The position numbers were made by a program, and so were the translations under genes. From IMG/VR virus record IMGVR_UViG_2563366928_000011: DNA of 21,625 nt; one strand, written 5' to 3'. Below the pieces are notes generated by a model. The model saw only the letters and a program-made list of their open reading frames with translations, ran no database searches and was not told the DNA's origin. The DNA comes from a virus (Duplodnaviria > Heunggongvirae > Uroviricota > Caudoviricetes). This document shows positions 1 through 20,365 of the stretch, piece after piece. The stretch's first letter is position 1. Every line of letters begins with the position of its first letter.

Positions 1-248
1 TCACCACCATTTGCACATAAAGCAGCCATGTACAACTGGTAGTTGAACAGGCGGGTAGACCGTTCGTTCAGTAAATACCTGATATTTCCGCCAACGAGAA
101 ATTGCGTTGGCTGGCAGAGTGCAAATTTGCACGATAACATAACCCATTGATTCTTTCGAAAACCCGCAATGCAGGAAGCCGGATAACACCATTTTTATAG
201 CTCCGCTCCCTTCAAAGTGAGGGGTAATTTGCCAAAACAGAGAGAGCA

Positions 249-536
249 TTACTGTCTCTGGCAATCTTTATCGCGATAACGCCTGAAGTACCCTCTCGCT
301 TCCTCATCCATACCAAGAGCCGAATGAGTCCGCTTAACTGCCTGTCTTAAATCTCCGAATCTGTCTGTAGTTGCTGGTGGGCGTGCCGCCTTACGGATAC
401 ATTCAGAGCGTCTGTTTGCTGCATGTTCACGTTCTTTATCGCCATCTGCCAGCATCATGACTTCTGCCCATCGTGCGGCAGCTCTCCGGTATAGCCCTTT
501 TGACTCCAGCTCTTCAGCTTTCCTGTCCTTTATCAT
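249..536 (-). CDS. PerC-family (Pch-like) transcriptional regulator, putative
   Basis: 95-aa ORF. The N-terminal segment EELESKGLYRRAAARW resembles the conserved core of PerC/Pch prophage-borne regulators (from memory, not searched). ATG at 536 is preceded by GAGG and a TATAAT-like box. Confidence 0.55.
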   Translation of the reverse strand: MIKDRKAEELESKGLYRRAAARWAEVMMLADGDKEREHAANRRSECIRKAARPPATTDRFGDLRQAVKRTHSALGMDEEARGYFRRYRDKDCQRQ

Positions 537-570
537 TTCTGCCTCTCAGATTATATAGATAAGCAAAAAG

Positions 571-690
571 GTGTTGGTTCAGTTGGTTCAATTTGTAAAG
601 AGCGTTGTTTTTATTGTGTTTTTTCTAAAATATTGAACCAACATCAACTCATTTTGAACCAACACAGCCCAGCTCTGAACCAACAACACA
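571..690. promoter_or_regulatory. Operator-like repeat array in divergent intergenic region (TTGGTTCA x2 inverted; TGAACCAACA x3 direct at 21-bp phasing)
   Basis: Read directly: TTGGTTCA at 574-581 and 583-590; TGAACCAACA at 634-643, 655-664 and 676-685. Lies between the divergent starts at 536 (minus) and 787 (plus). Confidence 0.5.
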
Positions 691-786
691 GCGATAGATT
701 TGCGATTGGTCCGTTATTTTCTGGCTGATATTTGAGCGTATAACAGTGTTATACAGTGGTATACTGTATGGATATTACTCACTGAT

Positions 787-1227
787 ATGGTCTTTGCAAT
801 GAGCAAATCTAATCTGATCGCGTTCCGCATCCCATCTGAATTGCAGGATGAGTTTAATCGGTCTGTTCTCGCTTCTGGAGGGGATAAAACCTCCTGGCTT
901 GTTGATGCGATTCGCATGAAGCTGGGACAGCCGGAAAAGTCTATTGATTCACGAATACTTGGGCTGGTGGAGCGCATGGAAAAAGCCGCAGCATCGCTTA
1001 TTGCCGGAAAGCCGAACACCCCACCAAAGCCATATAACGAAACGGCAGTTATAAAGATCATTGCCGATACCATCCGACAGGGATTTGATAATGGGCGTGT
1101 GATAGCTGAACGGCTCAATGAAGCAGGCTACCAAACAAAAGCTGGTAAAGCGTGGGATAAAGACATTTACAGCGCGTGGAAGCGTCAGGGTAACAATATT
1201 AAAAGAATCAATACGCTGCTTCAGTAA
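787..1227 (+). CDS. Hypothetical DNA-binding protein (RHH-like N-terminus, recombinase-type DNA-binding motif at C-terminus)
   Basis: 146-aa ORF, the only convincing plus-strand gene in the left half. LIAFRIPSELQDEFNRSV looks like a ribbon-helix-helix strand plus helix. VIAERLNEAGYQTKAGKAWDKDIY resembles the recombinase-domain DNA-binding motif. No clear RBS; start could be the internal ATG at 799. Confidence 0.5.
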   Translation: MVFAMSKSNLIAFRIPSELQDEFNRSVLASGGDKTSWLVDAIRMKLGQPEKSIDSRILGLVERMEKAAASLIAGKPNTPPKPYNETAVIKIIADTIRQGFDNGRVIAERLNEAGYQTKAGKAWDKDIYSAWKRQGNNIKRINTLLQ

Positions 1228-1256
1228 TTGATCAGTGTATAAATGATATTTATCGC

Positions 1257-2279
1257 TCAATCGCTCCCTTTCCGCCCTTCAGCTACAGGGTCGTTGTCGG
1301 CGATAACAAAACCTAAGTCCTGAGAGAATCTCTCTCGTGGGAATCCTTTAGCAGGTAAACCCATTGAATCATATCCACATCCGGGAACATTTGGTTTAGA
1401 GTCAATAAGGTCTGCAATTTGCCGAAGCCATGTTGATCCCGGACCAAGTCGTTTAACTAAGTACCAGATAATACAGATCGCGCTAAAAATCCTCTCGCAA
1501 CTCTCTGGATGGAGATTAAGTCCGTCAAAGTATTCATTATCCGGTACTGGAACTCGGGGATGCTTTCTATTCCATATTCTGGAATGGTGAGCGCAACGAT
1601 TCCTTATGAGATTAAGGCACTTCAACCATTTTGCAAATGTCTGCTTATTATCAATGCCAAAACGACGTATAATTTTCCCCTGCATATGACCATTAAGCAT
1701 CGCATAATATTTAGACATCTGACCAAAATCCCAGGTCTCCACCGCCACCCAAAATGGAATCTCCTTGCCTTGGCTTCGATGCCATTCAATACAGTCATCT
1801 CTGCTTTCGTCTAATTTTACTTTTTGCTTATACACCCAATGCTCGAAGGCAGATGAGAATTTTGGATTAATGTATTTTGATGACATGTAGGCAAGTGGAT
1901 CATTGCGACCAACCTCATGCGCGATGACTGAACGAACATGAATCTCTATTCTTTCGATAGCATCAATCATCAAAAGACGCAGTTTTTTGTCAAAAAGATA
2001 TAGATCGTACGTCTTCTCGAAACTGGTACCAGTAAGAAATCGGTCTGTTCTGTACGAAAGACCTTTATCTGTTGTCGCAATAATTCTTGATGGGTACCAA
2101 AAACCTGACAATCGATAATATCCAACCTGCGACAGCTTACGTATCGCACGATTTCGATCATTGATAATCATGCCACGTTCAAGTAGCAATCCTAGCAATT
2201 CGTGATAGTCCTTATGAGGCTTTGCGGCAATCATAGTGGCGAAACAAAAGATAATAAAAGGCCCGACCGTGAAACTCAC
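1257..2279 (-). CDS. Abi_2 family (AbiD/AbiF-like) abortive infection protein
   Basis: 340-aa ORF. N-terminal LLERGMIINDRNRAIRKLSQVGYYRLSGFWYP matches the characteristic Abi_2 N-terminal motif. Start uncertain: GTG at 2279 or ATG at 2234. Confidence 0.7.
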   Translation of the reverse strand: MSFTVGPFIIFCFATMIAAKPHKDYHELLGLLLERGMIINDRNRAIRKLSQVGYYRLSGFWYPSRIIATTDKGLSYRTDRFLTGTSFEKTYDLYLFDKKLRLLMIDAIERIEIHVRSVIAHEVGRNDPLAYMSSKYINPKFSSAFEHWVYKQKVKLDESRDDCIEWHRSQGKEIPFWVAVETWDFGQMSKYYAMLNGHMQGKIIRRFGIDNKQTFAKWLKCLNLIRNRCAHHSRIWNRKHPRVPVPDNEYFDGLNLHPESCERIFSAICIIWYLVKRLGPGSTWLRQIADLIDSKPNVPGCGYDSMGLPAKGFPRERFSQDLGFVIADNDPVAEGRKGSD

Positions 2280-2610
2280 ATGCCTGAAATCGGCGGCGGA
2301 GAAACAGAGGATCGGGCTCGGTTGCCTGTAACTCTATCCGAAGTTATCCACATGTCAATGCACAGTTACTTAGGAAACTAACATAGGTACTATCATCACT
2401 CACGAAAAACCACTATATGTGGTTTTTATTCATATCGTTATCCACTACAGGCTGTGTCAATAACTTTTACCTATTAATTGGGTAATTTCTACATTTTCCT
2501 ATGCTGTCTAGTTTCTCTACTGAAAAGTTGGCACTCCTTAATCGCTTTTCGGTTAATACTATCGGTCTTCATATTGCCAGCAGCATACGCCATCCGATAA
2601 TTTCGATGCT

Positions 2611-2995
2611 ACGCGCGCGTACTTGTCGCAAAATATCAGGCAAAGGCCAGATTCAGAACGTCGTGATAACCACCAGCACAACATGAGATGTCATGTAACA
2701 CGATTTATCACATCAGATACATGTGATTGGTGTACCCGCATAAAACATCGTCATAGCGCGTCCTGTGCGCATATACGCCGATAATCAACACATCACCACC
2801 ACTCTGTCTCGTGTAGAGAACAGTTTCATGGTATCCCCCGCCATCGTGTGCGTACTGGTCGGACGTAGTTGCAAAAATTTTGCAACTGATACCCCTCGCG
2901 CGCGTACTGGTCACGAAATTGGTGTTTTGCTGTGGCAGTGATATCAGAAAAATCTTCCTGTTTCACATAAAGCGGATATGCGCGTACTGTAACGG
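2611..2995. repeat. Four dispersed copies of a GCGTACT(G/T)GTC motif in a noncoding stretch
   Basis: Read directly: GCGCGTACTTGTCG about 2615-2628; GTGCGTACTGGTCGG about 2848-2862; GCGCGTACTGGTCACG about 2898-2913; TGCGCGTACTGTAACGG about 2979-2995. Lies in the ORF-poor 2280-3126 interval. Confidence 0.35.
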
Positions 2996-3126
2996 CCCCA
3001 TCAACTGGGAGCGGATTTGAGCCCCGAATGTGTAGGCAATGTCACTTAACGTTTGTCGCATACCTTCCAGAAAAAGCGATTCATGAATAATAGGGGCATG
3101 AATGCCCGGCGTACCGGGCTTATTAG

Positions 3127-3825
3127 TTAATTTGGTGCTTTAGGGTCAACATTAAAAGTTATATCACCTTCTGTATTTTTCCCGGCATAGCTAGCGGCTA
3201 TTCTCGCCAACCCTTTGTAATCAGCAATTCCATCAGACTGTTGCGAGACGACTGAGCTACCAACTTTCCATAACATATTAATCTGCCGATTATTGAGATA
3301 AGCCTTGGCATCAAACGACTGGAGTATCACCCCTGCGCCGTAGAACGTGTCCGTCACAGTTGTGTTATACGCGCCAGTAATTCCATAAGTAGGCGTATAA
3401 ACTGTTGTTGCCGTTCCAGTGGTATTAGCTGTACCGTAGCCACCACCATAACTATTGAACGTGGTGTTAGAGTTTCCGTACGTTGTTGCTGAGCTCACAC
3501 CAGTTTGCCCGTATATTGGGATGGTTACATTACGAGTATTTGAAATGGCCCCGCTTCTCAAAAAGTTCAAGAGAATTACCTGGTCAGCCAATTTTTCATC
3601 TTTAACTTGTGTATATCCTTGGCTTGATAAACTGGCGGCTACTACCGTAGCTATTTGAGTGTATTCAATCTGTTTGGTGTTCCAAAGTTCTTGGCTTGCG
3701 GGGATGATCAAGAACTTCTTACCGACAGATTGCCCGGAAGATAAAGCATTGACCGTTACTAACGGTTTTTGTACGCATCCAGCCAATAATGACAGGGATA
3801 ATATTAAAAGAAGATTTTTAATCAT
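3127..3825 (-). CDS. Lipoprotein with Thr/Gly/Tyr-rich repetitive region (function unknown)
   Basis: 232-aa ORF. Signal peptide with lipobox MIKNLLLILSLSLLAGC. GGTGA RBS upstream of ATG at 3825. Central low-complexity T/G/Y/N-rich tract. Confidence 0.65.
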   Translation of the reverse strand: MIKNLLLILSLSLLAGCVQKPLVTVNALSSGQSVGKKFLIIPASQELWNTKQIEYTQIATVVAASLSSQGYTQVKDEKLADQVILLNFLRSGAISNTRNVTIPIYGQTGVSSATTYGNSNTTFNSYGGGYGTANTTGTATTVYTPTYGITGAYNTTVTDTFYGAGVILQSFDAKAYLNNRQINMLWKVGSSVVSQQSDGIADYKGLARIAASYAGKNTEGDITFNVDPKAPN

Positions 3826-3975
3826 GATAATCTCACCTAAGAATTGCGTGGTTATAAATTATCATCACTGTAAGCGAATGTAAGCCACAGGCTCGTAATG
3901 TGATATGGAATTTTGATAGTTGGCTCAATATCAGTATGCCGTCCTTGGCTATTATGGTTTTGTTAGTTAGAGCGT

Positions 3976-6702
3976 CTATTCCCATTCGCTAACATCTTTC
4001 ATGCCACTGAGGGTAGCTACAATCCCGGCCCTTGTCAGTTTCACGAATTCTTCAGCCCCAACGGCATCACGAATTGCTTTCATGGCAATTTTATTGGCCG
4101 AAAATCGTTTCTCTGCTGCGGCGATCGCTGCTGGTGATGCCCCTGCGCGCACTGCTTTTGTAGCTTCCTGAACGGCTTTCTCTATCGCATATCGACCACT
4201 TCTTGTCGCCCCAATCTTAGCCACAGCATTTCTTAGCGCGCCACCAGCAACCAAACCACTTATCGAACCAATTACACCACCGCCAAAGCCTCCAGCGATC
4301 GCACCTGACTGTTGAACTCCGTTCATAATCACGCCGACGATCTTTGGAAGGCCTGAATCGAGCGTTTTGAGAGCCTCAGTTGTTCTTCCCGTGCGCTCTA
4401 CGTATCGCTGCGGTCTGGTACTGGCTTTAGCGAGTACACCGAACTCTTTCATCATTCTACCGAGATCTGGCGCATGACGACTGATGGCGTTTACATTCTG
4501 CTGGGTCATGAGCTTGGCAAAATACTGGATACCTGACTCTTCACCGATTCCTCCCTTCTCTCCCTGCGCCACAGCATGCTGAAGAATAGATGCTATTGCA
4601 GGTTGGCGTTCTGCTTCCGGCAGCGCGGAGATAAGACGGTGAAAAGCTCCCGTTCCAGTGTTTGCGGATGCCTTAAGCGTATCGGCACCTTTTCTTACCA
4701 TAGCGTCTGATGCGAGATCTCGACCAAAAACAGATTCGGCATTTTGTTTGGCGATAATGTAACTTTTAGAGAGATCGTTAGCTTTCTGCCATTCTGTGAG
4801 GAAGTTTCCTTTTTCAGCCATGATGCGCATGTCATCAGTGATAGCTCTGCGCATTTCTCCGGCAATCCGGGCGGCATTGGCCTTACCTGCCCGGGTGTTT
4901 GCTTGTTCAGCATCAGCAAACTTAGTACGCCATGCCTTCATCCCGTCGAAGGTTATGCCGCCACCTTGGTTGTTGGCAGCCTGAAACTGTTTCATCTCCG
5001 GGCTGAGTGGAACATTGGCTGCTTTTTCTGCTTGGACGACAGCCATCCCATTACTCATTTTCATCCTTTCGCGTGGCATCGTGCTTCGCAGTTCTGCCCA
5101 TGCCATATTCTCTGCTGTTTTCATATCACTGAGGCTCGCGATGATGCGCTCTTTAATTGCTGCGCTTTTTTCTGATGCGCTTCCAGACTCAGCACCGAAA
5201 TCAGACAACTGCTTATTCAACTTTGAGGATATTTCATTGAAGGCCGTAAGGTGAGCATCCTGAACATTCCCAGGAGTTGATGCCAGAACACCTTCTGCTT
5301 GGGCAATTCCACGACTACCTGAGCGCATTCCAGGCGTCAGGGTGTTGATATTAATACCAGTGATTTTCGCCGCCTTAGCGACATCATCTCTGACGTTTGA
5401 TGCCTGCGATGCGATATGCTCTCGGCCTACGGCAGAACGCGCTGCTTTCGATACATCATTGGCGGTTTCCAGAGTATTTGCTGCCCCTAACACATGGCCT
5501 GATTGATTTGTATTACTCCGCAATACATCTCGCATTACGTCACTGGCTGTCTGTCCGCTCTTTATTAAAGCGCGTGCTCCTAGCGATCCTGCTAGGCCAA
5601 TACCTGTCTCTTTTGCTAGGTCTTCTGGGCTGATCTGCCCGTTCTTTTGGGCGTTCACCAATGTACCTGGCAGGTTTTCTGCCAACATACTAGCCACCTT
5701 TGTGGCCGCACGTTCAGCACGTGGAGCGTTGGCAACTGAAGAAGCTGCGGTAGCTGCCTTTCCTGCACCTAATCCTGTAATAAGGTAAGGTGCTAGCTGC
5801 TCACCAGCCTGCGCGTATGGATCTGTAGGTTGGTCTACTGGGCGAAAGACAGGTGATATGGGCGTGTATGTGCCATCACCCACACCAAGCTTCTGAGCTG
5901 CCCATGCTCCGGCTGATTGCGCCGCATTGACTACCCCCACGCCTGCGTCCATTACATCAAACGGTATATTAGCAATCCCTCTGGCCATCTGCTCTGGCGC
6001 AGCTTTCAGTCCTGGCGAAAGATATTCCATCTCAGGATTAAGGTTAGACTTGGCTACTTGCTGCTGCGGTTCCCCGGCATTTTCATCGGCGAGAAACTGA
6101 GCTCTTTTCTGCTCCCATGAACTGGCTGTTGGTAGTCCTGCTTCTATGTTCTTAAATTGCTGACGTTTTGCTTCCCATGCAGAAATATCTCCCACCTGAG
6201 AGATTTCTTTATCAAGCTCTGAGTAGTCAGGCTGCTGAAGATTGCGATGTTGACTGGTTTGTGCAAACTGCAAGATTTCACTGTCATCAGGGATTATTCC
6301 GGCATCTGCAAATTTACTTACGTAATTAGCCGTTTCATCTGGCAGTGTAGATTTACCGTTTCTGACGGCATTAATACGAGCATAGCCAGAATTATACCCA
6401 GCCAATGCCATACCTATATCACCAAATCGCTTCATTCCTTTATTGAGATGGTTTGCTGCGATATCCATTTGCTTTTCAAATGGCAGTGAGCGCGGATCTG
6501 TTCCACGATAACCAGCATCACTCATTACTGAGGGCATCAGTTGAGCAAATCCTCTAGCTCCTTTCGGTGACTCGGCACTTCCGTTACCACTAGATTCATT
6601 GCCAACTAATGTTTCCATCGTCCCTGATGGGAAACCATATTTTTCATCGAGATGACGGGAATAGGCTTTCTGTTTTTCTGTCAGTTGTGCCATCATTGCC
6701 AT
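3976..6702 (-). CDS. Large virion/ejection-type protein with N-terminal SLT lytic transglycosylase domain
   Basis: 908-aa ORF. N-terminus carries SLT-like motifs (GNESSGNGSAE..GARGFAQLMPS and ALAGYNSGYARI). Long Ala/Gly/Gln-rich helical remainder. Last gene of a four-gene cassette; start overlaps the stop of the upstream gene. Confidence 0.75.
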   Translation of the reverse strand: MAMMAQLTEKQKAYSRHLDEKYGFPSGTMETLVGNESSGNGSAESPKGARGFAQLMPSVMSDAGYRGTDPRSLPFEKQMDIAANHLNKGMKRFGDIGMALAGYNSGYARINAVRNGKSTLPDETANYVSKFADAGIIPDDSEILQFAQTSQHRNLQQPDYSELDKEISQVGDISAWEAKRQQFKNIEAGLPTASSWEQKRAQFLADENAGEPQQQVAKSNLNPEMEYLSPGLKAAPEQMARGIANIPFDVMDAGVGVVNAAQSAGAWAAQKLGVGDGTYTPISPVFRPVDQPTDPYAQAGEQLAPYLITGLGAGKAATAASSVANAPRAERAATKVASMLAENLPGTLVNAQKNGQISPEDLAKETGIGLAGSLGARALIKSGQTASDVMRDVLRSNTNQSGHVLGAANTLETANDVSKAARSAVGREHIASQASNVRDDVAKAAKITGININTLTPGMRSGSRGIAQAEGVLASTPGNVQDAHLTAFNEISSKLNKQLSDFGAESGSASEKSAAIKERIIASLSDMKTAENMAWAELRSTMPRERMKMSNGMAVVQAEKAANVPLSPEMKQFQAANNQGGGITFDGMKAWRTKFADAEQANTRAGKANAARIAGEMRRAITDDMRIMAEKGNFLTEWQKANDLSKSYIIAKQNAESVFGRDLASDAMVRKGADTLKASANTGTGAFHRLISALPEAERQPAIASILQHAVAQGEKGGIGEESGIQYFAKLMTQQNVNAISRHAPDLGRMMKEFGVLAKASTRPQRYVERTGRTTEALKTLDSGLPKIVGVIMNGVQQSGAIAGGFGGGVIGSISGLVAGGALRNAVAKIGATRSGRYAIEKAVQEATKAVRAGASPAAIAAAEKRFSANKIAMKAIRDAVGAEEFVKLTRAGIVATLSGMKDVSEWE

Positions 6703-8012
6703 CCCTTAAGTTTTGCCTGATAGTAACTTTCCGGCAGATAGCCATGTGCGGTCACATAATCCTTAACCAGTGAAGGATCCTGCAACAGCATTTTGGTATC
6801 AGTTTCTTCGTCCTTAGATTTGGTTACAGGAATACCGAGCCCGGCAATCTGTCGTTTCTGCATTCGAATAATTACGTCCTGCGCTTTATTCAACTCTCGC
6901 AAAAATGCCTCATTGCTGGTTGCTGACTTAATGCCATTTTGAGATTGCATAAGGGCAGCCCTTTCCCCTTCGGTTGGGTTAGAGCCAAAAGTCCCTTTGA
7001 GGCTAGGCAGAATAACCTTTAGGTTGTATTCATCAGCTTTGGCGCGTAGGCTTCGTGTGTCTTCTGCTACATCAGGAAGGAATCCAAACCCCAGCGTCAG
7101 GGGGTTATAGTTCTGCGAGCGGGTAACGGCCGAAGGATGTTTCCCTACAATTCCCGCCAGTTCATGACCCACTTCAAGCGCAGAGTTCAAGGAGTCGATG
7201 TTACCTGCAACAGTATTAATTTTATCGTTCATCTTCTCCACTTTCGCCTGCTGTACCTTGCTCAGTTCAGCATTGAGCTTGTCTCTCTCGATGTCATTTT
7301 GAGCACGTCCAAGTCGTGCTTTCAGAACCATTTCTCTCGTGCGTAGTTGGTTATCGGATAGGACTTTGAACTGCTCCATATCGAGACGTCGATTACCCTG
7401 TTCCGCATTAACCTGAGCATTATATGCGGATGTATCTGCGTTCTGCTGTGCAATGCTCTGCCCTTGCTGCTTCTCTTGAACACTAAAGTAACTATTTGGA
7501 TCAGCATGGAGGTGGATGAGGTCAGTGATTCTGTTGAATTCCTGTGGGTCATTCTGCCAAGACTGATAAACCTCTTCAGCAGGAAGACCAAATCGCTGTA
7601 ATACTGGATTTGCCTGCTGAATGGCCTTCTGCATGATCAGTGGATCTCCAGTTTGTGACGCAAGACGCAGATTCATGGCAGCGTCAGCGGTCTGTCGATT
7701 TTGCTCAGCATCAATGAATCCCATCTGTTTTTGAGAATCAGCCATAAACTGGGGATACTGGGCCATTAACTTCTGCACGCCAACACGATCATTATTAGCT
7801 ACCGCACTACCCAACCGTGCCTGATATTCTTTTAACTGCTGGGAAATTTGCGCCTGCTGATTAATCTCAGCAACGCCTCTTAGCCCCTGTAGCGCCATTA
7901 AACCTACGTTTGGCTGCTGCTGATACTGCACAGGCTGAGGAACGGAAGAACGAGGAGCATTATCATTTTGCGGTGCCATGCTAGGCAGCCCGCCAAGTTG
8001 CCATGTCGCCAT
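6693..8012 (-). CDS. Ejection/DNA-transfer-type protein, putative (P22 gp20-like by size and position)
   Basis: 439-aa ORF. Q/A/N-rich, predicted coiled-coil character. Tightly packed between the 225-aa and 908-aa genes. Assignment rests on architecture, not on a search. Confidence 0.6.
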   Translation of the reverse strand: MATWQLGGLPSMAPQNDNAPRSSVPQPVQYQQQPNVGLMALQGLRGVAEINQQAQISQQLKEYQARLGSAVANNDRVGVQKLMAQYPQFMADSQKQMGFIDAEQNRQTADAAMNLRLASQTGDPLIMQKAIQQANPVLQRFGLPAEEVYQSWQNDPQEFNRITDLIHLHADPNSYFSVQEKQQGQSIAQQNADTSAYNAQVNAEQGNRRLDMEQFKVLSDNQLRTREMVLKARLGRAQNDIERDKLNAELSKVQQAKVEKMNDKINTVAGNIDSLNSALEVGHELAGIVGKHPSAVTRSQNYNPLTLGFGFLPDVAEDTRSLRAKADEYNLKVILPSLKGTFGSNPTEGERAALMQSQNGIKSATSNEAFLRELNKAQDVIIRMQKRQIAGLGIPVTKSKDEETDTKMLLQDPSLVKDYVTAHGYLPESYYQAKLKGWQ

Positions 8013-8689
8013 TAGAATCCAAGCCCCCCAACAAGACCAATAAGCCCACCACCAATAGCGCCGGCCGCAGTTCCTATTCCAGGAACAACGGAACCAAGTT
8101 GCGCACCCGCTAAAGCGCCTGATGCTGCCCCACCAATACCACGCGCAAGACTGGATGGCTGCTGCGCCTGACCTGCACGAATAGCGCCAAGCCCCTGCAA
8201 GAGTTGTCCGGTATTATTGGCGTAGTTTTGCCCTGCCGTTGCCTGCCCTGATGCCGCATTCATCCCGACATTTAGCAGGTTTCCATAATTTTGCATTTGC
8301 CCACTGAGCCAATTGTTATAAAGCATGGGCGCAATGGAAGATAACTGGTTACTGGTAGCTGTTGAGCCAAGCCCCCCGGTAGCTTCTGCTGAGACAAGGT
8401 TCTGATAACGGGCCTGATCTGCCTGTGTTTTATATAAACCAGAACCAAAGAAATCATTCGCGGCTTTATTCTGCCCTTCCAGAGTCATCAGTCCTTGCAG
8501 TTGTTGTAAAGCAGGCAATCCGACTTCTGCATACGGCTTGAGATTATTCATCACCGTATTCCACTGCTCGCGCTGCAAATCAATTGCCTGCTGCTGGGCC
8601 TTCGCCTGAGCTTTAGAGGCACCACCATCACCGCCTTTTTCGTATACGGCACGATTGAGATGTTTATGAGCTATATGGGTAATTAACAT
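8012..8689 (-). CDS. Ejection/DNA-transfer-type protein, putative (P22 gp7-like by size and position)
   Basis: 225-aa ORF. Gly/Ala-rich with hydrophobic Gly-zipper C-terminus (GGLIGLVGGLGF). ATG at 8689 overlaps the upstream stop as ATGTTAA. Confidence 0.55.
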   Translation of the reverse strand: MLITHIAHKHLNRAVYEKGGDGGASKAQAKAQQQAIDLQREQWNTVMNNLKPYAEVGLPALQQLQGLMTLEGQNKAANDFFGSGLYKTQADQARYQNLVSAEATGGLGSTATSNQLSSIAPMLYNNWLSGQMQNYGNLLNVGMNAASGQATAGQNYANNTGQLLQGLGAIRAGQAQQPSSLARGIGGAASGALAGAQLGSVVPGIGTAAGAIGGGLIGLVGGLGF

Positions 8690-9144
8690 TCGCTGAATTC
8701 CTTATATTGTTGCCGAGTTAACTGATAAAGCGTTACGCCGACGGGTTTACCACATCTGATATAAGCATCATCAAGGTGACCAACACGGGTAGCGCCAAGC
8801 AAACGGATAATTGCCCGTCCATATTTTGTGGTGTCAGGAACCATAGTGATGCTGTTAAGGAATGGTGAGTTTTCGAGAAGCCACTTGCAGAATAATCGAT
8901 GCCCTTGCAGTGCATATTCACCACGGAATCCGGGGTCGTACACCGCATGGCATTCAACAACGCTATGCCAGAAGTTACGCACTTCATGAACGCCAGCCAG
9001 CACTAATCCTTCGTAGATGCCGAGATATACCGCATCAGGCTTGATGTAGTACGTGTGCCCCGGCTCAACAATATTTTCGGTATTGCCTGGCTCGTTAAGA
9101 AAGGCCTGTAATCGCACAGGGTTATCAATAAATTTTAGTTCCAT
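8683..9144 (-). CDS. Hypothetical protein, first large gene of the ejection-like cassette (gp14-like position)
   Basis: 153-aa ORF with protein-like composition, 16 nt downstream of the small RHH-like ORF. No motif recognised. Confidence 0.55.
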   Translation of the reverse strand: MELKFIDNPVRLQAFLNEPGNTENIVEPGHTYYIKPDAVYLGIYEGLVLAGVHEVRNFWHSVVECHAVYDPGFRGEYALQGHRLFCKWLLENSPFLNSITMVPDTTKYGRAIIRLLGATRVGHLDDAYIRCGKPVGVTLYQLTRQQYKEFSEC

Positions 9145-18607: not shown

Positions 18608-19126
18608 ATGAGTGTGCCGCAAACAAAAGCTGAACTGCTTTTAGCTATTGATAAAAATTTTAGTAAATTAATTAGTTACCTCAACACAATCCCACCAGAA
18701 ATTACTTCAGATAAATCAATGGACGGACACGCCAAAGGAACGGAGATGAGTGTTCGTGATCTCGTTTCGTATCTGCTTGGATGGAATGCTCTTGTTGTAA
18801 AGTGGATCGCTTCTGATGCTAAAGGTCTGCCTGTCGATTTTCCGGAAACTGGCTATAAATGGAATCAGCTTGGCCTTCTTGCTCAAAAATTTTACTCAGA
18901 TTACAGTGAGTTAAGTTATGAGTTGTTAGTAGCTGAACTTCAGACTGTAAAAAATGAGATTGTGAACCTTATTAATGATCGTACCGATGATATTTTGTAT
19001 GGAAGACCATGGTACACAAAATGGACGATGGGGAGAATGATCTCATTTAACACATCTTCGCCTTACGCCAACGCTAATGGAAGATTAAGAAAGTGGGCAA
19101 AAAATAATAATATCAGTTTAAAGTAA
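18608..19126 (+). CDS. ClbS/DfsB-family (DUF1706) four-helix-bundle protein
   Basis: 172-aa ORF. Matches remembered ClbS-type motifs (GHAKGT..SV.DLVSYL.GW, WN.LG.LAQKFY, GRPWYTKWT.GRMI.FNT.SPY). Lower GC than surroundings. Confidence 0.7.
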   Translation: MSVPQTKAELLLAIDKNFSKLISYLNTIPPEITSDKSMDGHAKGTEMSVRDLVSYLLGWNALVVKWIASDAKGLPVDFPETGYKWNQLGLLAQKFYSDYSELSYELLVAELQTVKNEIVNLINDRTDDILYGRPWYTKWTMGRMISFNTSSPYANANGRLRKWAKNNNISLK

Positions 19127-19144
19127 GCTTCAGAATGAAATTAT

Positions 19145-20365
19145 ATGGACGAAAAATCCCTCTATGCCCATATCCTTAACCTGACTGCACCATGGCAGGT
19201 TAAATCCCTTACCCTCGATGAAAATGCAGGTTCCGTTACTGTTACAGTCGGAATTGCTGAAAATACTCAGTTAACCTGTCCGACCTGCAGGAAATCCTGT
19301 TCTGTTCACGATCACCGACATCGTAAATGGCGCCACCTTGATACCTGCCAGTTCATGACATTAGTAGAAGCCGATGTTCCCCGCGTTATGTGCCCGGAGC
19401 ATGGCTGCCAGACTCTGCCTGTACCGTGGGCAGGTTCCGGCAGTCGGTACACTCTGCTGTTCGAATCGTTCGTGCTCTCATGGCTTAAAATCAGCACCGT
19501 TGATGCGGTCAGAAAACAACTTAAACTTAGCTGGAATGCCGTTGACGGCATCATGACCCGCGCGGTTAAGCGAGGCCTGTCGCGGATTAAAAAGCCTTTA
19601 TCAGTGCGTCATATGAATGTAGACGAAGTCGCCTTTAAAAAAGGGCATAGGTATATAACCGTGGTATCTGATCGCGACGGGCGGGCACTGGCATTAACCG
19701 ATGATCGTGGCACAGAGAGTCTTGCCAGCTATCTCCGTTCGCTTACTGACAGTCAGTTGTTGGCCATCAAAACACTGTCGATGGACATGAATGCGGGCTA
19801 TATAAGAGCAGCGCGTATCCATTTACCCAATGCGGTCGAGAAAATCGCCTTCGATCGCTTCCATGTGGCGAAGCAACTGGGCGAAGTGGTTGATAAAACC
19901 CGCCAGAATGAACATCCGCACCTCCCTGTTGAAAGTCGTCGTCAGGCCAAAGGTACCCGCTTCCTGTGGCAGTACAGCGACAAATGGATGACTGAGTCCC
20001 GGCAGGAAAAGCTGATGTGGTTGCGGGAACAGATGCAACAGACAAGCCAGTGCTGGACACTGAAAGAGCTGGCAAAAAATATCTGGGATCGCCCCTGGAG
20101 CACAGAACGCAGGAATGACTGGTTGCAGTGGATATCGCTGGCGTCTGAATGTGATGTGCCGATGATGAAAAACGCAGCGAAAACCATTAAAAAACGGTTA
20201 TACGGAATACTGAATGCAATGCGTCATCGCGTCTCGAATGGAAATGCGGAGGCGCTGAACAGCAAGATCAGACTGCTGAGGATAAAGGCCAGGGGATACC
20301 GAAACCGGGAACGCTTTAAACTGGGAGTTATGTTCCACTATGGGAAACTGAATATGGCGTACTGA
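19145..20365 (+). CDS. ISL3-family transposase
   Basis: 406-aa ORF. N-terminal C2C2 zinc-finger region (CPTCRKSC...CPEHGC) followed by a DDE-type core typical of ISL3 transposases. Bounded by the inverted repeats above. Confidence 0.85.
   Translation: MDEKSLYAHILNLTAPWQVKSLTLDENAGSVTVTVGIAENTQLTCPTCRKSCSVHDHRHRKWRHLDTCQFMTLVEADVPRVMCPEHGCQTLPVPWAGSGSRYTLLFESFVLSWLKISTVDAVRKQLKLSWNAVDGIMTRAVKRGLSRIKKPLSVRHMNVDEVAFKKGHRYITVVSDRDGRALALTDDRGTESLASYLRSLTDSQLLAIKTLSMDMNAGYIRAARIHLPNAVEKIAFDRFHVAKQLGEVVDKTRQNEHPHLPVESRRQAKGTRFLWQYSDKWMTESRQEKLMWLREQMQQTSQCWTLKELAKNIWDRPWSTERRNDWLQWISLASECDVPMMKNAAKTIKKRLYGILNAMRHRVSNGNAEALNSKIRLLRIKARGYRNRERFKLGVMFHYGKLNMAY

Follow-up and report, generated by a model that had tools for sequence, protein, structure and literature searches.

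Is an abortive infection gene carried on a mobile element of Escherichia coli a one-gene system, or does it act with a partner that annotation overlooks? The question is raised by a minus-strand abi gene in a 21,625-nt stretch of Caudoviricetes DNA (IMG/VR record IMGVR_UViG_2563366928_000011), called here, at its full length, the window. An earlier note, made from the sequence alone, had described positions 1257–2279 as a solitary Abi_2-family defence locus. Our analysis indicates that abi is probably not solitary and that a structured RNA encoded upstream is its likely antitoxin. By analogy with characterised relatives, the locus is fairly probably an AbiF-type type III toxin–antitoxin/abortive infection module, carried as exchangeable cargo on an EcCIMP1-family island.

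The open reading frame (ORF) listing gives a minus-strand ORF of 340 codons with a GTG start at 1257–2279. The frame noted earlier is present, but its start was placed too far upstream: the true start is very probably ATG 2234 rather than GTG 2279, because RefSeq uses this ATG and homologues with 41–75% identity align from that Met. In RefSeq, an identical E. coli sequence carries at the same coordinates 'Abi family protein' WP_016234630.1, with a start matching window position 2234. GTG 2279 falls within the conserved leader RNA structure described below. The Pfam search proposed in the earlier note was run, and Abi_2 (PF07751) matched over essentially the whole profile (2–184 of 184; E 2.3e-52; 178.4 bits against a 25.6-bit cut-off). 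The PADLOC AbiD model agreed (E 6.9e-58), and PHROG 2158 'abortive infection resistance protein' also matched. The AbiD/AbiF-type assignment is confirmed, and the YYRLSGFWYP context from which it was first made is present in the product, which includes QVGYYRLSGFWYPSR. NCBIfam holds no model for the protein.

A phmmer search of PDB sequences returned a single real relative, 8vz6_A (E 3.9e-36, residues 4–301), labelled in Foldseek as "PbAbiF dimer bound to ncRNA". An AlphaFold2 model of a single Abi subunit was built from 28 homologues and reached a predicted local distance difference test (pLDDT) score of 89.9. With this model, Foldseek gave 8vz6_A as the sole PDB match below 1e-3 (E 4.9e-16, template modelling scores 0.74/0.81, 318 columns). 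The HEPN motif R-[NHD]-x3-H is R211-N-R-C-A-H216 in Abi, and its RNRCAH aligns to RNSCCH of PbAbiF (R210/H215). R211, N212, A215 and H216 are unchanged across the alignment of 28 homologues. R202 and H207 of Clostridioides difficile AbiF are needed for activity/toxicity, and R210 and H215 of PbAbiF are needed for activity (PMC12373285). Abi is a genuine AbiD/AbiF-type HEPN protein of full length, and its catalytic motif is intact. RNase activity is predicted; toxicity, neutralisation by an RNA antitoxin and phage defence would follow by analogy.

AbiD/AbiF-group proteins form type III toxin–antitoxin systems in which a small non-coding RNA with its gene just upstream attaches to the protein and masks its HEPN site (PMC13064643, PMC12737573, PMC12373285). 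Because relatives in this group have an upstream RNA antitoxin, such an RNA was searched for at this locus. Eighty loci encoding homologues with 41–68% identity were fetched from Pseudomonas, Desulfobulbales, Vibrio, Pasteurellaceae, Enterobacterales and other groups. Visible in the raw upstream sequences of homologues are AAYCGNGCCCGAUCCYCUG, a variable hairpin and UAYGRUCGGGCCUUCUUGUUUCUGG, and among the 80 loci the protein match begins a few to ~45 nt after this conserved RNA element. A covariance model, R1, was built and run with filters off. The features of the gene and its leader are as follows.

1257–2234, minus strand: abi gene, encoding a 325-amino-acid (aa) AbiD/AbiF-family (Abi_2) HEPN protein; ATG at 2234–2232, stop codon 1257–1259 included.
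2325–2242, minus strand: leader RNA, candidate AbiFr-like antitoxin/attenuator, from covariance model R1, fold and covariation.
2317–2310 paired with 2268–2261, minus strand: outer helix P1, 8 bp, GC-rich.
2309–2307 (CUC) opposite 2269 (C), minus strand: internal loop.
2306–2298 paired with 2278–2270, minus strand: inner helix P2, 9 bp, with an extended apical hairpin on top.
2259–2242, minus strand: U-rich tail, UUUUAUUAUCUUUUGUUU, directly 3′ of the GC-rich P1.
2331–2358, minus strand: sigma-70-like promoter, TTGACA at 2358–2353, a 16-nt spacer and TAGAGT at 2336–2331; 10/12 in a consensus scan.
2405–2427, minus strand: short AU-flanked hairpin, AAAAACCAC-AUAUA-GUGGUUUUU, read from the sequence.

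The element is ~70 nt long and has a covarying two-helix structure, a CCUCUG/YAYG internal loop and a variable inner hairpin. It was evaluated on an alignment of 37 sequences. RNAalifold returned the same structure as the one drawn by hand, with an 8-bp P1, an asymmetric loop (CYC opposite Y), a 9-bp P2 and a variable cap. Standard pairs occupy 91.7% of cells in this alignment versus 30–45% when the 3′ partner is slid. Compensatory changes occur at 11 of the 17 pairs, and the observed covariation score was reached by none of 500 shuffles. When 70 distinct R1 matches were aligned, 13/17 pairs were compensatory, in an alignment that is model-fitted and leans towards the structure. Unpaired bases C16–C17, U20–G21 and A56 are invariant across classes of Proteobacteria. 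Minimum free energy folding of the window RNA alone gives P1, the base of P2 and the apical hairpin.

In the window, R1 found a single significant site, at 2325–2242 on the gene strand (52.1 bits, E 1.7e-13). It scored 61.1 bits on a second abi allele, absent from training, which another strain carries in the corresponding island slot, and found nothing in an island copy with ImmA/IrrE cargo in that slot. One match each was obtained in 75 of the 80 loci, always on the gene strand and directly upstream, with none elsewhere in 437 kb. The five R1-negative loci include one without upstream sequence and three from Pasteurellaceae (L073, L078, L083). With a covarying RNA directly upstream here and in 75/80 homologous loci, the description of a solitary locus without a partner is not supported. 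The regulation and cofactor, called unclear in the earlier note, now have a candidate, since the RNA is promoter-proximal and in relatives the equivalent position is that of an antitoxin/attenuator (PMC12373285, PMC13064643, PMC12737573).

The Pasteurellaceae loci have, ~90 nt 5′ of the abi homologue, an RNA of the same plan by eye with a different outer helix (GGCGUAGCC...GCUACGUCC). In these RNAs CCCUG and CAAG are conserved and the insert is larger, with two hairpins. The RNA family is broader than model R1. The two island abi alleles (window 2305–2360; L003 3729–3808) share ~89% nucleotide identity over the promoter and first ~20 nt of the leader and then diverge sharply. The point at which the alleles recombined appears to be within the RNA gene, where the P1 5′ strand ends.

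The layout of the leader suggests how abi may be controlled. The promoter-like site would put the start of transcription near 2324, where the conserved RNA bases begin, and homologous loci have TTGACA..TATTAT-type hexamers at an equal distance from the RNA motif. P1 and the U-rich tail together have the shape of an intrinsic terminator on reading the sequence. The RNA element ends ~8 nt 5′ of the start codon, and the outer helix closes 26 nt 5′ of it. No Shine–Dalgarno sequence is evident 5′ of ATG 2234 (window 2235–2259), nor in several relatives. These weak start signals suggest deliberately poor or regulated translation initiation of abi. In many Pseudomonas relatives CUGGRACAUGGAAGUUG is common at the start, and the choice between an AUG and a UUG start is ambiguous. 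Further upstream, the hairpin at 2405–2427 drew no call in the terminator scan; with low confidence, it may be a weak bidirectional terminator that shields the cassette from upstream transcription.

Several points weigh against reading the leader as an AbiF antitoxin RNA. The terminator scan, limited to loops of 3–8 nt, made no call at the P1 stem and U-tract. The promoter is a consensus match only, and the region overall is not enriched for such sites. The folding z-score of the window RNA is modest (−1.42), and for that reason the case for the leader RNA rests on covariation and association. R1 itself was trained on the window sequence together with 36 loci. The Rfam abiF model (RF03085) has no match in window 1–4500 (E<=1) or 2200–3130 (E<=10), none in 20 homologous loci, and none in locus L022 at E<=10. 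Other Rfam families likewise gave no match in the window or in the homologous loci. The RNA upstream of PbAbiF is scored only weakly by R1 (13.3 bits, E 0.033).

The gathering score of RF03085 is 37 bits, and the positive control, phage phiC2, scored 37.6 bits. The native locus of the 8VZ6 protein was recovered and has the upstream RNA ACCCGCCAAGCCUCUCAACGAUGCUCAAAUGUGCGGGUCGUUUUAUUUUUAUACA, followed by AUG; by eye this RNA is close to the RF03085 consensus, as taken from the phiC2 control match. Human-gut phage contigs encoding Abi_2 proteins with 30–35% identity to the window protein have intermediate-looking CCUCUG...CAAG RNAs, which R1 matches at E ~1e-5. In a PbAbiF relative from Prevotella ruminicola (L088 1113–1185), an abiF hairpin of the Rfam type is interrupted just 3′ of the conserved CUCUC by an insertion of ~45 nt containing extra hairpins. 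The known abiF loop thus tolerates large insertions at the position of the variable inner hairpin in the proteobacterial RNA. We conclude that the window RNA is a distinct structural variant of AbiF-associated RNA and not a member of RF03085. Common descent of the two is plausible, not demonstrated. A bolder and tentative proposal is that the leader defines a class of AbiF antitoxin RNA with a structure of its own, found widely in Proteobacteria and missing from Rfam, with an outer clamp, a CCUCUG/YAYG loop and a freely varying hairpin, unlike the 37-nt abiF hairpin of Bacteroidota and Firmicutes.

The carrier bears on what the module is for. The window is an element of ~20 kb, flanked by proA/tRNA-Thr and yagU. 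Its genes encode an integrase, an AlpA-type helix-turn-helix (HTH) regulator, AntA antirepressor, Ash, a Toprim/DUF5906 primase, DUF2824, PerC, three P22-type ejection ("DNA transfer") proteins and a lipoprotein-like product. EcCIMP1 of E. coli MP1 occupies the same site with the same gene order and five identical protein accessions, and EcCIMP1 is an experimentally verified phage-inducible chromosomal island that is mobilised by the P22-like phage Kapi1 (PMC11773190). On these sequence comparisons, the carrier is assigned to the EcCIMP1 family of phage-inducible chromosomal islands. Two features define the surroundings of abi within it.

1195–2546, strand not assigned: exchangeable abi cassette, approximate, with its left junction in the 3′ end of a 146-aa ORF.
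2547–3020, strand not assigned: conserved non-coding island backbone with five same-strand GCGCGTACTG-like repeats at 2615, 2756, 2848, 2900 and 2980.

The right junction of the cassette is the point where abi-carrying and other-cargo copies become alignable among seven island copies. On the left, the window and island copy L002 have different C-termini in the 146-aa ORF. The exact abi allele is present in ~74–76 of 5426 complete E. coli genomes. The abi gene and its RNA form a cassette that is exchangeable accessory cargo of EcCIMP1-type islands, and the slot between the 146-aa ORF and the backbone behaves like a small cargo hotspot. In some strains the slot holds the abi allele of the window and in others a second one with 51% aa identity; other strains have an ImmA/IrrE metallopeptidase with a 125-aa membrane protein there, or only a 52-aa HTH gene. 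EcCIMP1 itself has only a small HTH gene there.

The earlier note had also placed an 850-bp ORF-poor region with repeats after the gene. The region is indeed ORF-poor (2280–3126; longest ORF 68 aa, none with a family match) and enriched in repeats; because the gene is on the minus strand, it lies upstream (5′) of abi, not after it, and most of it is island backbone. A blastn search against the 5426 complete E. coli genomes showed it to be composite. The ~310 bp from 2235 to ~2546 accompany abi, and 128 records cover at least 80% of the 2235–3126 query. The block at ~2547/2603–3020 (~470 bp) is found in ~548 of the 5426 genomes, where it is 95–99% conserved and almost never annotated. In seven copies and four contexts it persists beside ImmA/IrrE cargo, a small HTH gene, the second abi allele and island remnants. 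The block at 2547–3020 is conserved non-coding island backbone and not an abi cofactor; it is not abi-specific, because ~548 genomes carry it whatever the cargo. Since the 850-bp region is mostly this unrelated backbone, a cofactor should be sought elsewhere.

The repeats themselves are real. With at most 1 mismatch, GCGCGTACTG has 5 sites in 2615–2989, all on the plus strand; across the whole window it occurs 8 times versus 0.92 expected, and none of 100 shuffles reaches 8. A longer repeat of 23 nt is also present in the block, in three copies. A decayed partner gene in 2547–3126 was considered and rejected: small ORFs and a stitched translation had no Pfam match (best DUF7777, E 0.23), indels between copies are frameshifting, and GCGCGTACTG stands in different reading frames. 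In the alignment of seven island copies, backbone copies differ by 1-, 2- and 6–7-nt indels at homopolymer runs. Because of the indels, the mixed repeat frames and the lack of a family match, 2547–3126 is non-coding or long dead. The backbone region has no Rfam match and no match in the phage collection, and in the plasmid collection it matches a single record, a 4.9-Mb E. coli one. The block may contain iterons, operator sites or a packaging site, or may be dead coding sequence.

Of the regulators beside which the earlier note placed abi, one has a family match, PerC at 249–536 (minus strand). The 146-aa ORF at 787–1227 has no Pfam or NCBIfam match. This convergent ORF was also rejected as an abi partner; it is present in other-cargo copies and so belongs to the island backbone.

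On such a carrier, a toxin–antitoxin pair might serve mainly for addiction or stabilisation of the island and not for defence, or might act against, or to the benefit of, the helper phage of the island. We regard this as a minority possibility. The gene lies on a mobilisable EcCIMP1-type island (PMC11773190), and for the prophage-borne AbiF of C. difficile, anti-phage activity was not demonstrable and a maintenance role was proposed (PMC12373285). However, lactococcal AbiD, AbiD1 and AbiF were discovered via phage resistance (PMC13064643), and alternative cargo in one slot is the pattern of the anti-phage hotspots of P2-like phages and P4-like satellites (PMC9122126). A maintenance role does not exclude defence; the biochemistry is the same and both could hold.

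The main alternative to an antitoxin RNA, judged unlikely, is that the leader acts purely in cis, as an attenuator or translational control that keeps abi low, with no trans-acting antitoxin and a protein held inactive by other means. The GC-rich stem followed by UUUUAUUAU does look like an intrinsic terminator, and no Shine–Dalgarno sequence is visible 5′ of the ATG. Precedents exist as well: translation of AbiD1 is controlled by a phage protein that binds its mRNA (PMC13064643), and the C. difficile RNA RCd22 also acts in cis via termination (PMC12373285). A plain terminator, however, needs no invariant unpaired bases such as C16–C17, U20–G21 and A56. Both characterised AbiF systems have an RNA that neutralises the protein in trans too, and the window protein is a full-length homologue of RNA-bound PbAbiF.

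A solitary Abi protein with any cofactor or regulator hidden in the 850-bp repeat region is very improbable: no cassette-specific partner protein gene was found and the repeats are real and unexplained, but the repeat region at ~2547–3020 occurs in ~548 genomes with other cargo or none, and a conserved covarying RNA lies much nearer the gene.

If the locus is an AbiF-type toxin–antitoxin module, transcription would start near 2324 and would mostly halt at the stem and U-tract, giving an abundant small RNA. Occasional read-through would produce abi mRNA, from which little protein would be made with no obvious Shine–Dalgarno sequence. Abi would form a dimer with one RNA per monomer, and the conserved single-stranded bases would occlude the HEPN site. 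The trigger could be shut-off of host transcription by infection, or a phage factor that displaces or destroys the labile RNA. Freed AbiF would then cut cellular and phage RNA, stopping growth and aborting the infection. The same addiction logic would also stabilise the island.

The gene annotation was already known, as was the type of system, which is structurally characterised. What is new is the recognition of a probable, unannotated RNA partner for abi in E. coli and in Proteobacteria more widely, the distance of this RNA from the Rfam motif, and its place in a cargo slot of the EcCIMP1 family. The proteobacterial RNA variant may already be described in Zilberzwige-Tal et al. 2025. Routine annotation calls the gene "Abi family protein", and it is taken for a single-gene defence system; none of the records examined annotates the probable RNA partner, and the Rfam abiF model misses it. 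Cloning or scoring abi without 2235–2360 would probably give a toxic or misleading construct. The slot marks a place where EcCIMP1-type islands exchange candidate defence genes. If the inner hairpin tolerates any sequence while the protein reads the clamp and loop only, the proposed class of RNA would be a natural intermediate in which to study the gain of a variable, guide-like segment by an antitoxin RNA between AbiF and Cas13.

Other island genes were also inspected. The PerC protein (249–536, minus strand) scores 26.2 bits with the NCBIfam ANR negative-regulator model, a weak match that falls short of the 32-bit cut-off. The PerC-like protein of EcCIMP1 represses, and does not activate, LEE (locus of enterocyte effacement) expression (PMC11773190), a report that the weak ANR match fits. 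Positions 3976–9144 (minus strand) encode the island's own P22-type virion proteins: DUF2824 (gp14-like), gp7-like, gp20-like and a gp16-like DNA-transfer protein of 908 aa that bears an SLT lytic transglycosylase domain at its N-terminus. The island has no capsid, terminase or tail genes. Its own ejection proteins look unusual for a phage satellite; for EcCIMP1, a packaging role for the virion-type proteins is suggested only (PMC11773190). Compared with the matching island of isolate AF14, which otherwise matches, a DUF1706 gene and an ISL3-family transposase are inserted at 18608–20365 (plus strand), between the HTH regulator and the integrase; the window therefore derives from another strain than its best 8-kb match. 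ARAGORN detected no tRNA or att remnant in the window.

The closest known system is PbAbiF–AbiFr of Prevotellaceae (PDB 8VZ6), described by Zilberzwige-Tal et al. 2025 and cited here as summarised in PMC12737573 and PMC13064643. PbAbiF is homologous to the window protein over its full length, with ~29% aa identity in the structural alignment and the HEPN R-N-x3-H at the aligned position. In both systems a single structured RNA separates the promoter from the start codon and has a CCCG/CGGG clamp, CCUCU right after the clamp 5′ strand and a U-rich tail. They differ in the RNA of PbAbiF being the Rfam abiF hairpin, 37 nt long, whose inner part is a 3-bp helix and loop; in the window RNA the inner part is a covarying hairpin of 9 bp or longer. 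The 3′ internal loop is CAAAUGU in the PbAbiF RNA and YAYG in the proteobacterial RNA. The window system also differs in its proteobacterial host and phage-satellite carrier.

AbiFCd–RCd22 of C. difficile likewise pairs an Abi_2 toxin on a mobile element with an RNA, under a promoter common to RNA and gene and with an intervening terminator, which in the window is predicted. In C. difficile most transcripts from the common promoter of RCd22 and abiF end at the terminator before the gene, and RCd22 neutralises AbiF in cis and in trans (PMC12373285). RCd22 has two tandem RF03085 motifs and a separate terminator hairpin, whereas the window has one motif, whose outer helix is apparently the terminator stem. 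AbiFCd and the window protein share ~29% identity (tblastn).

ToxIN/AbiQ is alike in having an RNA antitoxin just upstream of the toxin, a terminator between them and an abortive infection phenotype. It is unlike the window system in its unrelated, non-HEPN toxin fold and in its antitoxin, a tandem repeat array processed by the toxin; ToxI-like tandem repeats were sought 5′ of abi and none were found. The lactococcal AbiD/AbiD1/AbiF proteins belong to the same Pfam family and PADLOC AbiD model as the window protein, and their upstream non-coding sequence is required (PMC13064643). Those systems differ in being plasmid-borne in Firmicutes, with known resistance phenotypes and triggers (such as bIL66 Orf1 for AbiD1). 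To a family characterised in Prevotellaceae, Clostridioides and Lactococcus, the present locus adds an E. coli, satellite-borne example.

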